This document shows positions 12,071-12,973 of a stretch of 64,000 nt of DNA, piece by piece. The DNA lies in the NCBI RefSeq assembly GCF_003334785.1, contig NZ_QOWV01000007.1; one strand, 5' to 3'. The notes beneath the pieces were generated by a model. That model was not told the origin of the DNA. It searched no databases and was given only the letters and a program-made list of their open reading frames with translations. A program made the translations under genes and the position numbers. Numbering within the stretch: the stretch's first letter is position 1; each line of letters starts with the position of its first letter. The stretch comes from Escherichia coli. GTDB taxonomy: Bacteria > Pseudomonadota > Gammaproteobacteria > Enterobacterales > Enterobacteriaceae.

Positions 12071-12253
12071 TTAAATAAGGTTAATTACCTTATCAATCTC
12101 AGCAAGAGGTAAATTTGCCATCTCTGCAACGTCTTCCCGAGACATTCCTTTACTCAGAAGACGCTGGGCGAATTCCTGACTTACTTCCTGTCTTCCCTGC
12201 TGAATCCCCTTCTCAATCCCTTTCTCTTCAAACCACTGCGCCAGCGTCATCAT
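12071..12253 (-). CDS. Candidate nested in-frame small protein (C-terminal 60 aa of RpnC) with its own RBS
   Basis: On the minus strand GGGAGGGGAG lies 7 nt upstream of ATGATG (first ATG at 12253..12251), in frame with rpnC; translation begins MMTLAQWFEEKG. Confidence 0.45.
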   Translation of the reverse strand: MMTLAQWFEEKGIEKGIQQGRQEVSQEFAQRLLSKGMSREDVAEMANLPLAEIDKVINLI

Positions 12254-12973
12254 AGACTCCCCTCCCGTTTCCCTGTCTCTCAACACACCGTAAAACAAAT
12301 CCGCTTGTTCAGTATGACCGCGTTGCAGCATATAGTTTTGCATGGCAACTAACTGACTTCCGCTAGTGTACCCTTCGTCGATCAGCGTGACCAGTTGCTC
12401 AAGCAATAACATTAAGTCGCGCTGGCGAATATGTTTTTGCAGTAGTTCGAGAATCGCAATCCGCCGATGTTGCATGATTTCGTCATCCGGTGTGATGGTG
12501 ATATCCACCAGCGGGAAAGGACTGTTATAGACGCGTCGCGCCAGCTCCGGCGAGTAAAACATATCAAACCAGCACATTGATAGCGGATAAGGTGTGGCCT
12601 CGCCCTGATAAAACAGTATCGGCACCACCAGCGGCAGCTTATCGTGGTCAGCCTCCAGATGCCGGTGCATGGCGGCTATAGAATAACGCATCATGCGAAA
12701 GGCCATTTTCTTATCCGGCTTGCTTTGGTGTTCAATCACAACATGCAGATAACCGGGATTGCCCTGCATTTGCACGGAATAGAGCACGTCCGTGCTGTGT
12801 CCTTTCAGGCTCTCTTCAATGAAACTCCCCGACTCTAAATGAAGCGTGTTGAGGTCACAAAGTTCGCGTAATTCCACTGGCAAATGTATCTCCAGAAAGT
12901 CGCGAGCCGTCTCCGCATGCATTAAAAATTGTTTAAATACCGCGTCATGCGGTGTGGTACTCGGTGCATCCAT
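12071..12973 (-). CDS. rpnC: Rpn-family recombination-promoting nuclease (PD-(D/E)XK, transposase_31-like)
   Basis: 300-aa ORF matching the YhgA/Rpn family (formerly yadD); located between panC and panD. Confidence 0.9.
   Translation of the reverse strand: MDAPSTTPHDAVFKQFLMHAETARDFLEIHLPVELRELCDLNTLHLESGSFIEESLKGHSTDVLYSVQMQGNPGYLHVVIEHQSKPDKKMAFRMMRYSIAAMHRHLEADHDKLPLVVPILFYQGEATPYPLSMCWFDMFYSPELARRVYNSPFPLVDITITPDDEIMQHRRIAILELLQKHIRQRDLMLLLEQLVTLIDEGYTSGSQLVAMQNYMLQRGHTEQADLFYGVLRDRETGGESMMTLAQWFEEKGIEKGIQQGRQEVSQEFAQRLLSKGMSREDVAEMANLPLAEIDKVINLI

Follow-up and report, generated by a model that had tools for sequence, protein, structure and literature searches.

The rpnC gene of Escherichia coli is, with a probability that we put at about 93%, a gene-within-a-gene toxin-antitoxin module, in which a small protein, RpnC-S, is translated from the 3′ end of the frame that encodes the nuclease RpnC-L. 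A first-pass annotation of the window (the whole stretch of 64 kb that was analysed) had pointed to a strong internal Shine-Dalgarno (SD) sequence with in-frame ATG codons inside this gene and had stated that Rpn nucleases are reported to be restrained by intragenic small proteins. This statement agrees with published work, which covers rpnC itself (Zhong et al. PNAS 2023, PMC10400941). The nested rpnC-S finding is correct and already known; it is not new because the internal translation of RpnC-S and its restraint of RpnC were published in that study. What is added here are the window coordinates, the ranking of the SD sequence, candidate −35 and −10 hexamers matched to a transcription start site (TSS) from Cappable-seq, and an argument for M242 as the start.

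The window matches positions 95,941-159,940 of E. coli K-12 MG1655 in reverse complement with 3 mismatches in 64 kb, none of them inside rpnC, and a window position equals 159941 minus the MG1655 coordinate. The gene and its nuclease domain are located as follows.

12071..12973, minus strand: rpnC (b0132, yadD), full-length CDS for the toxic recombination-promoting nuclease RpnC-L, 300 codons plus stop, from the ORF listing and RefSeq (NC_000913.3, 146968..147870)
12353..12955, minus strand: N-terminal Rpn domain, residues 7-207, Pfam PF04754 (Transposase_31 / YhgA-like), E = 3e-87

The assignment to the Rpn family is also seen in the match of RpnC to TIGR01784 of NCBIfam (298 bits, cut-off 52). 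Rpn proteins have been assigned to the PD-(D/E)XK phosphodiesterase superfamily, and endonuclease activity was measured on RpnA (Zhong et al. 2023, PMC10400941). In the RefSeq annotation of MG1655, the locus carries the rpnC CDS alone and no rpnC-S entry. Both the ORF list and the RefSeq coordinates confirm that the gene sits between panC (11146..11997, plus strand) on one side and panD (13247..13627, plus strand) on the other, as the first-pass annotation had it.

The same annotation called the gene a transposase-like interloper, a description that is poorly supported. Carried through, it would make rpnC a domesticated or decaying transposase and the nested product a truncated in-frame inhibitor of transposition of the Tn5 Inh type. 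The names of the families lend themselves to this idea ("Putative transposase, YhgA-like" in Pfam and "ISNCY family transposase" in NCBIfam), rpnC is the sole gene in the panC-panD interval and runs opposite to both neighbours, and an in-frame inhibitor made by truncation follows a formally similar logic. Nevertheless, the gene is flanked by neither terminal inverted repeats nor a target-site duplication: a repeat scan over 11950..13300 found no inverted or direct repeats bracketing rpnC, and the repeat pairs that it did find in this interval, of 12-17 nt, are internal except for one in the rpnC-panD spacer and one of which a copy immediately precedes the rpnC start. The composition is ordinary, with a GC content of 0.47-0.51 at rpnC similar to that of the neighbours. 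Moreover, of 5426 complete E. coli genomes, 5416 carry rpnC between panC and panD, its synteny extends to other Escherichia species, Pseudocitrobacter and Salmonella enterica subsp. diarizonae, and the order panD-rpn-panC-panB is retained in 11 loci from three genera. Zhong et al. (PMC10400941) found variable ends and no sign of autonomous transposition, and argued that Rpn proteins are not transposases, no autonomous transposase of the PD-(D/E)XK fold being known. A transposition inhibitor at this locus is almost certainly the wrong explanation.

The case for a nested toxin-antitoxin module begins with the initiation signals near the 3′ end of rpnC.

12266..12257, minus strand: Shine-Dalgarno run GGGAGGGGAG, covering codons G237 G238 E239 and the last base of T236
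12253..12248, minus strand: tandem in-frame starts ATG ATG, codons 241-242 of 300, M241 at 12253..12251 (ATG1) and M242 at 12250..12248 (ATG2)
12071..12253, minus strand: nested rpnC-S frame for the antitoxin RpnC-S, identical to the C-terminal end of RpnC-L and, with a stop in addition, 60 codons long if read from ATG1 and 59 if read from ATG2

The trinucleotide TCT (12256..12254) separates GGGAGGGGAG from ATG ATG. The run contains two cores. GGAGG (12265..12261) has a spacing of 7 nt to ATG1 and of 10 nt to ATG2; for GGAG (12260..12257), the corresponding spacings are 3 and 6 nt. The spacing of seven nt given in the first-pass annotation is right for the GGAGG core relative to ATG1 and wrong for the purine run as a whole, which stops 3 nt short of that codon. 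The duplex energy between the 18 nt upstream of the internal ATG and the anti-SD sequence ACCUCCUUA is −10.8 kcal/mol; the start codon of rpnC itself has an SD energy of −4.2 kcal/mol. The earlier statement that the internal SD is far better than those of most genes in the window holds, as it is stronger than 54 of the 56 annotated starts (median −5.7), being exceeded by speE (−12.9) and yadI (−12.0). Among the 493 in-frame internal ATGs of annotated genes it ranks first, with the runner-up at −9.1 and the median at −2.5, and this rank together with the direct read of the sequence bears out the internal SD with its ATGATG. The run GGGAGGGGAG occurs once in the 128 kb of the window read on both strands. 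The core motif GGAGG by itself has 17 occurrences on the window's minus strand and 12 on its plus strand.

It could be argued that the purine run is a by-product of the Gly-Gly-Glu codons, with an elongation pause as its possible effect, that the ATGs are ordinary methionines and that no separate protein is made. The run is indeed inside the coding frame and encodes G237 G238 E239, and the GGAGG counts indicate that internal SD-like motifs do occur by chance. However, such a by-product is hard to reconcile with the first rank of the site, with the conservation of SD and ATG across 65 homologues in spite of differing encoded residues, and with a strong internal TSS just upstream (see below). 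It is refuted by the published protein and profiling data for rpnC: Zhong et al. (PMC10400941) observed internal initiation in the Onc112 and retapamulin profiles of MG1655 (Fig. 2D), and a chromosomal C-terminal SPA tag in MG1655 revealed both RpnC-L and RpnC-S (Fig. 2G blot). The Ribo-RET list of Meydan et al. 2019 (10.1101/520783) likewise includes an in-frame internal start in yadD, with synonymous-site conservation locally raised. That no separate protein would exist is scarcely credible.

The conservation of the site was followed at two depths. In 8 Escherichia orthologues the SD run is invariant, and the codon directly upstream of it varies (ACG, ACA, TCG, ATG); the 60 nt around the SD recur without a mismatch in 4489 of 5426 E. 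coli genomes. For the family, 65 full-length homologues drawn from 74 loci were aligned. The SD upstream of the homologous start reaches −6 kcal/mol or lower in 51 of 65, compared with 8.1% of background codon positions, and −8 kcal/mol or lower in 37 of 65, compared with 2% of background. The residues encoded at the homologous SD differ, being GGE in RpnC and KE, EE or others elsewhere.

This alignment also bears on the choice between the two ATGs. The column of M242 holds Met in 62 of 65 homologues and is followed by Thr in all 65, while the column of M241 holds Leu in 50 of 65. The crystal chain of RpnA-S, 7TH0_A, starts with MTIAERLRQEG and aligns with MTLAQWFEEKG of RpnC, that is, from M242 onward, and the 6 nt between GGAG and ATG2 are the spacing kept across the Rpn family. 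Judged from the alignment, the family-conserved start is M242, which would give a product of 59 aa. The first-pass annotation had proposed a 60-aa product identical to the C-terminal tail of RpnC; the tail in the same frame stands, and its length is uncertain because the conserved start and the first residue of 7TH0 both align with M242. As the purine run offers two SD registers, both ATGs are possibly used, and the start in vivo may be M242 or both codons, the latter producing two isoforms of RpnC-S.

Transcription of the nested gene may be assigned to a promoter of its own, with the following elements.

12365..12393, minus strand: candidate internal sigma-70 promoter from a relaxed hexamer scan, −35 TGGTCA at 12393..12388, 17-nt spacer, −10 TACACT at 12370..12365
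12358, minus strand: internal TSS (A) from Cappable-seq, MG1655 147583 on the plus strand, 105 nt upstream of ATG1

In the Cappable-seq data of Ettwiller et al. 2016 (PMC4782308, supplement 1), the TSS at 147583 has a relative read score of 60.2 and that at 146793 one of 1.8. The internal TSS is thus about 33 times stronger than 146793, which is the sole mapped start upstream of the rpnC start codon. According to dRNA-seq data cited by Zhong et al. (PMC10400941), all rpn genes have an internal TSS. The hexamers themselves are weak. A default promoter scan found no minus-strand promoter inside rpnC, and the TGGTCA/TACACT pair, with 8 of 12 hexamer matches, was the top match of the relaxed scan within 12254..12700. 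It is accepted only because the −10 element is followed, at a distance of 7 nt, by the published TSS, and it is on this basis that we infer these −35 and −10 hexamers for the short rpnC-S transcript. In the 8 Escherichia orthologues, the −10 element is unchanged and the −35 element is altered at one base in one of them. The placement of the TSS presumes that the coordinates of U00096.2 equal those of NC_000913.3 here, an agreement supported by the fit of the −10 position to the TSS.

The 105-nt leader that follows folds no better than shuffled sequences (z = +1.57; 192 of 200 shuffles fold at least equally well). A leader so weakly structured should leave the start site accessible. A riboregulatory mechanism is not proposed, as the folding of the leader shows no structure hiding the SD.

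A further published TSS, at MG1655 147880 on the plus strand with a score of 19.4, corresponds to window position 12061 on the minus strand, 10 nt past the rpnC stop. The element assigned to it is TTGATA-17-TAAGTT, which overlaps the end of rpnC-S, and transcription from it enters the panC terminator and the 3′ part of panC in antisense orientation. This transcript might be a relic of an arrangement with a stand-alone rpnC-Ss gene (see below), or it might alternatively be an antisense RNA that links a defence locus to the pantothenate operon. The combined reading, in which M242 or both ATGs are used and the transcript from 12061 is such a relic or panC-linked antisense RNA, is doubtful, and we would put the odds well against it.

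The product of the nested frame has the translation MMTLAQWFEEKG...KVINLI and contains a short repeat.

12195..12226, minus strand: 12-nt tandem repeat, 2.7 copies, period 12 in Tandem Repeats Finder, encoding KGIE-KGIQ-QG in the long first helix

The AlphaFold2 model of RpnC-S shows three helices (3-33, 38-44 and 49-58) with a mean pLDDT of 79.5. Comparison of the model with 7TH0 (RpnA-S) by Foldseek gave TM scores of 0.63/0.79 and a probability of 0.92, with a poor E-value of 0.74. Poor Foldseek E-values are usual for very small proteins. The relation is clearer at the level of the profile: the profile of the 65 tails matches 7TH0 in the PDB with E = 4.1e-12, positions 1-68 of the profile falling on residues 1-48 of the chain, its full length. 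A pairwise phmmer search of the PDB with the 60-aa tail missed RpnA-S (7TH0) and returned a designed repeat protein and marginal helix-turn-helix (HTH) matches. Designed pentatricopeptide and helical repeat proteins, which came top in the PDB search with the tail profile, were discarded as repeat artefacts because each of them sums many weak per-repeat matches. With Pfam, neither RpnC, RpnC-S nor any of the 65 tails matched DUF4351 (PF14261), and at most weak matches to DUF2802, Yae1_N, HTH_3 and HTH_7 were seen. The membership in the RpnS group is unaffected by the absence of DUF4351, since it is supported by the match to 7TH0. Among Escherichia, Pseudocitrobacter and E. coli strains, the repeat number is hypervariable, the type of unit varies as well (KGIE, KGME, RQEG, RQEV, QGMQ), and the tails range from 55 to 76 aa.

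The same structural results invite another view of the function, namely that RpnC-S is made and acts mainly as a regulator that binds DNA through an HTH, such as a repressor of the rpnC promoters themselves, or as a sensor or decoy for a phage factor, the binding of the toxin being secondary. The Foldseek comparison shows the model to resemble DNA-binding HTH proteins (DeoR, KorB, resolvase, Trp repressor) about as well as RpnA-S, and the weak Pfam matches to HTH_3 and HTH_7 point in the same direction. Many type II antitoxins also act as repressors. Zhong et al. (PMC10400941), for their part, report that the regulation of the L:S ratio is unexplained and suspect a phage factor behind the repeat variation. 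The functional data from the same study, on the other hand, speak for binding of the toxin. RpnC-S blocks the RpnC-dependent induction of dinD-lacZ, an SOS reporter (Fig. 4D), and the block holds with RpnC under the control of a heterologous rhamnose promoter. It also requires an equal number of KGIE repeats in both proteins (Fig. 4D), a dependence on matched repeats that points to protein-protein pairing. Furthermore, RpnA-S binds RpnA-L directly and inhibits its cleavage in vitro. A mainly regulatory RpnC-S is highly unlikely on these grounds; the antitoxin and regulator roles are nevertheless compatible with each other.

The toxin-antitoxin reading of rpnC can be set against several known systems. 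The closest is RpnC-L/RpnC-S of Zhong et al. 2023, which is the same gene with the same internal start, the rpnC region of the window being identical to that of MG1655. The paralogous pair RpnA-L/RpnA-S (7TH0) shares the Rpn nuclease domain at the N-terminus, an SD placed some 6 nt ahead of an in-frame ATG-ACN (Met-Thr) and the three-helix tail. RpnA-S differs in having 49 aa without the repeat expansion, whereas RpnC-S has 59-60 aa with KGIE/KGIQ repeats. It was only with RpnA that nuclease inhibition in vitro and the L2S2 complex were measured. The antitoxins are specific for their cognate toxins, RpnA-S and RpnB-S giving no cross-protection (PMC10400941).

Stand-alone RpnS genes (rpnC-Ss; ypaA = rpnE-Ss; DUF4351 proteins) encode homologous three-helix proteins with the same repeat region as RpnC-S. 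In E. coli JNEC-KY178 and AST20, copies of 71 and 77 aa closely follow rpnC, and the tail of K-12, which has the nested copy only, is about 80% identical to each of the two forms that such strains carry, the stand-alone and the nested one. In contrast to the nested form, the separate genes begin with a start codon of their own (MEIKTRRETRQ-TLAQWFEEKG...) and have a weak SD (−5.3).

Classical type II toxin-antitoxin systems are alike in that a protein antitoxin, made in excess from a stronger signal, binds the toxin directly, and further in the helical HTH-like fold of the antitoxin and the link to phage defence. They differ in that their antitoxin is encoded by a neighbouring gene, whereas the Rpn antitoxin is the C-terminal part of the toxin frame with an internal promoter and start. 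As the antitoxin is part of the toxin's own frame, RpnC-L and RpnC-S must co-evolve, unlike the partners of classical type II systems. As in rpnC, a single frame encodes two proteins by means of an internal in-frame start in Tn5 transposase/Inh, Cas10d/Cas11d and the IF2 isoforms; in the Tn5 pair, the shorter protein is the inhibitor of the longer one. These systems have other folds and activities. The short protein of the Rpn family is a small oligomerisation domain from the C-terminus that has a promoter to itself, and transposition plays no part. The Cas10d/Cas11d pair is cited by Zhong et al. (PMC10400941).

A mechanism can be proposed by combining these observations with the analogy to RpnA. 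RpnC-L (300 aa), through its N-terminal PD-(D/E)XK nuclease domain, would cause DNA damage and SOS induction when in excess. A second, stronger promoter within rpnC (TSS 12358) would supply a short mRNA whose 105-nt leader has little structure, and on this mRNA the SD run GGGAGGGGAG would direct ribosomes to ATG-ATG at 12253..12248, yielding RpnC-S as the last 59 or 60 residues. RpnC-S is predicted to be a three-helix, HTH-like bundle with a long first helix common to RpnC-L. By analogy with RpnA, S would bind L via this shared helix, and the nuclease would be blocked in an L2S2 complex. The 12-nt (four-residue) repeats would alter the length of the helix, and S and L would fit only with equal repeat number. 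Since both proteins share one DNA sequence, they necessarily change together.

Some elements of this proposal are carried over from relatives of RpnC. Growth toxicity upon removal of the internal start was published for RpnA, RpnB and RpnP2, and phage defence was demonstrated in plaque assays with the plasmid homologue RpnP2 only (PMC10400941). From RpnA, RpnB and RpnP2 we infer a direct complex of RpnC-L with RpnC-S, inhibition of the nuclease in vitro, growth toxicity of RpnC after loss of the internal start and an anti-phage role of RpnC. In PADLOC-DB v2.0.0, weak partial matches to RmrA and a putative invertase were obtained (best E = 1.3e-4), with no Rpn match.

The rpnC-S frame is a real nested gene, unannotated in RefSeq for MG1655, that is recoverable from raw sequence alone. 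Four features mark it: an internal SD that few annotated starts surpass, an ATG in frame and close to the 3′ end, conservation of the start position within the family, and an internal TSS. They could serve as criteria in a search for other nested regulators. The rpnC gene is one of the few experimentally proven toxins whose antitoxin is translated inside its own frame.

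The 64-kb window corresponds, in reverse complement, to positions 95,941-159,940 of E. coli K-12 MG1655 (NC_000913.3), with three single-base differences, none of them close to the internal rpnC start; it therefore derives from a K-12 relative or variant and not from the exact reference record. The differences and the gene under study are as follows.

Window 33749 (MG1655 126192), difference in aceF
Window 39854 (MG1655 120087), difference in ampE
Window 57846 (MG1655 102095), difference in murC
12071..12973, minus strand, rpnC (b0132, formerly yadD), "recombination-promoting nuclease RpnC", between panC and panD

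Gathering-score matches to Rfam were also obtained in the window for PssrA (54628..54717, minus), tp2 (36927..37040, plus), STnc40 (48912..48981, minus) and two naRNA4 (CssrE) copies (48315..48392 and 48432..48508, both minus); none overlaps stfZ, the sole ncRNA annotated in the RefSeq record of the stretch.

Direct reading of the minus strand around the internal start, ...GAA ACG GGA GGG GAG TCT ATG ATG ACG CTG..., confirmed the Shine-Dalgarno (SD) sequence and the in-frame ATGs described inside rpnC in the first-pass annotation.

12266..12257, minus strand, purine run GGGAGGGGAG
12260..12257, minus strand, second SD register GGAG, 6 nt before ATG2
12253..12251, minus strand, ATG1, codon 241 of 300 (M241), in frame
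12250..12248, minus strand, ATG2, codon 242 of 300 (M242), in frame

The spacing of seven nucleotides given there holds for the GGAGG core relative to ATG1 but not for the whole run GGGAGGGGAG, which ends 3 nt before ATG1. For each start, SD strength was calculated as the duplex energy of the preceding 18 nt with the anti-SD ACCUCCUUA. The internal rpnC start reached −10.8 kcal/mol against a median of −5.7 for the annotated starts of the window (n = 56), among which only speE and yadI are stronger, so that the description of this SD as far better than most in the window is quantitatively true. It also ranks first among 493 in-frame internal ATGs of annotated genes (runner-up −9.1, median −2.5).

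A scan of representative genomes found 74 loci encoding rpnC relatives, and 65 full-length genes were aligned. The column of M242 holds Met in 62 of these 65, the remaining three having Met one column earlier, and is followed by Thr in all 65; in the M241 column Leu prevails, with 50 genes against only 12 with Met. An SD of −6 kcal/mol or stronger precedes the conserved Met in 51/65 genes, compared with 8.1% of the remaining codon positions of these genes, and one of −8 kcal/mol or stronger in 37/65, compared with 2%. The residues encoded under the SD vary among paralogues (GGE, KE, EE and others) while its SD character is retained, suggesting that the RNA signal at the internal start is under selection. 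At the population level, of 5426 complete E. coli genomes, 4489 carry the 60 nt around the internal start without a mismatch and 5116 with at least 95% identity; only 1563 records match the whole 1.4-kb locus at ≥99%. An earlier Ribo-RET list already contained yadD as a conserved in-frame internal start with locally raised synonymous-site conservation (10.1101/520783). Tagging with a C-terminal SPA epitope on the chromosome revealed the Rpn small proteins, and both the full-length product (RpnC-L) and the nested C-terminal product (RpnC-S) were detected for rpnC (PMC10400941). The published short and long products, together with the conservation of the internal start, exclude that the internal SD is a chance SD-like motif or a pause site.

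The proposed 60-aa length stands if ATG1 initiates, but homology favours ATG2 and a 59-aa product, because ATG2 is the family-conserved Met-Thr start, aligns with the first residue of crystallised RpnA-S, and shares the geometry of GGAG, 6 nt and ATG common to most paralogues (e.g., AAGGAG-AAACTG-ATG). It also fits the loss of RpnA-S on combined K240R, E241D and M244L mutation of RpnA (PMC10400941). ATG1, for its part, stands at a favourable 7 nt from GGAGG, and therefore both ATGs may serve. In the public protein collection, at least 1000 contigs have the exact 60-aa tail as a protein of its own and 102 have the 59-aa form, labelled for instance 'transposase YhgA family protein' or 'hypothetical protein'. 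The internal SD evidently attracts automatic gene callers, and the two counts reflect gene-caller rules and not biology.

Transcription starts on the rpnC strand were taken from the Cappable-seq table of MG1655 (PMC4782308, supplement), with relative read scores.

MG1655 146793, sole start mapped before the rpnC start codon, score 1.8
MG1655 147423, minor internal start, score 2.6
MG1655 147545, minor internal start, score 1.7
MG1655 147583 (window 12358), main internal start, score 60.2
12393..12388 and 12370..12365, minus strand, candidate promoter of the main internal start, −35 TGGTCA and −10 TACACT, 17-nt spacer

This promoter is the best match of a relaxed hexamer scan, and its −10 element ends exactly 7 nt before the start at 12358. 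Eight Escherichia orthologues share the −10, the SD and both ATGs without change; the −35 differs by one base in E. albertii. Folding of the 105-nt leader with the start region is no stronger than that of shuffled sequence (z = +1.57), and the internal start should therefore be accessible. The SD of rpnC's own start (window 12974..12993) is among the weakest in the window at −4.2 kcal/mol; taken with the score of the single upstream start, RpnC-L looks poorly expressed relative to the nested antitoxin in both transcription and translation. By dRNA-seq, every rpn gene has an internal transcription start, and the short transcript exceeds the full-length mRNA (PMC10400941).

Another fairly strong Cappable-seq start (MG1655 147880, plus, score 19.4; window 12061, minus) lies 10 nt beyond the rpnC stop codon. 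Its candidate promoter, TTGATA (12096..12091) and TAAGTT (12073..12068) on the minus strand, was read by eye and was returned by no promoter scan. The resulting transcript would pass in antisense across the panC terminator hairpin (12002..12032) and enter the panC 3′ end. Other E. coli strains have rpnC-Ss, a stand-alone small gene related to the nested one, at this position.

A profile of the 65 tails matched PDB 7TH0, a chain of 49 residues titled "Recombination-promoting nuclease RpnA", from end to end (E = 4.1e-12), with the chain start MTIAERLRQEG aligned to MTLAQWFEEKG of RpnC. The AlphaFold2 model of the 59-aa form shows one long helix, residues 3-33, followed by two shorter helices, 38-44 and 49-58, at a mean pLDDT of 79.5. 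The best TM-scores among PDB chains belong to 7TH0 (0.63/0.79), and the remaining matches are HTH DNA-binding domains; a mainly regulatory, DNA-binding role of this small HTH-like protein is improbable but would be compatible with the antitoxin role. The RpnA-S crystal is a dimer of three-helix bundles (PMC10400941). The tail also carries a tandem repeat.

12195..12226, 12-nt tandem unit, 2.7 copies (TRF), encoding KGIE-KGIQ-QG

Orthologues differ in the number and type of units, with tails of 55-76 aa; in one E. coli strain the units number six (KGIE/KGME/KGIQ).

The view of rpnC as a transposase-like interloper found little support: no inverted or direct repeats bracketing rpnC were found, its GC content is ordinary, and it lies at the panC-panD site in 5416/5426 E. 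coli genomes. Other Escherichia species, three Pseudocitrobacter genomes and Salmonella enterica subsp. diarizonae show the same gene order, panD-rpn-panC-panB. A role of RpnC-S as a transposition inhibitor like Tn5 Inh fails on the same lack of transposon features. In the Pseudocitrobacter and diarizonae loci (L008-L011, each with its Rpn gene near 3001-3950), Rpn is only 57-64% identical to K-12 RpnC and the flanking PanC and PanD 85-98%; either the resident gene therefore outpaces its neighbours by far in evolution, or it has been replaced in place. In some E. coli strains a further small gene stands alone between rpnC and panC; annotated "RpnC/YadD family protein" (71 or 77 aa), it has its own N-terminus (MEIKTRRETRQ...) and another repeat set.

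L078 680-895, stand-alone small gene, E. coli JNEC-KY178
L079 680-913, stand-alone small gene, E. coli AST20

The K-12 tail region (compare window 11998..12300) aligns at ~80% identity both to the stand-alone gene and to the nested tail of such strains, suggesting past duplication or deletion-fusion. The stand-alone copies fit the history of duplication, deletion and fusion described for rpn genes (PMC10400941).

The statement in the first-pass annotation that small intragenic proteins restrain Rpn nucleases was correct, and the literature covers rpnC itself (PMC10400941). Nuclease activity was measured for RpnA, SOS induction was reported for RpnC, and removal of the RBS and internal start unmasked toxicity of RpnA, RpnB and plasmid RpnP2, the last of which confers protection from some T-even phages. 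RpnA-S associates with RpnA-L, in agreement with an L2S2 complex, and prevents DNA cleavage in vitro. Induction of dinD-lacZ by RpnC was blocked by RpnC-S only with equal KGIE repeat numbers in both (PMC10400941), which shows the restraint for RpnC itself at the level of SOS induction and repeat matching; a direct RpnC-L/RpnC-S complex we infer from RpnA. The nested product and its antitoxin reading are thus already known in detail for exactly this gene. RpnC-L, in which our domain search found the Rpn domain, is in all probability the toxin, an Rpn nuclease of the PD-(D/E)XK superfamily. RpnC-S is the antitoxin, which is produced in excess through the internal promoter and strong internal start and blocks the activity of RpnC-L, presumably by pairing with its identical helix.
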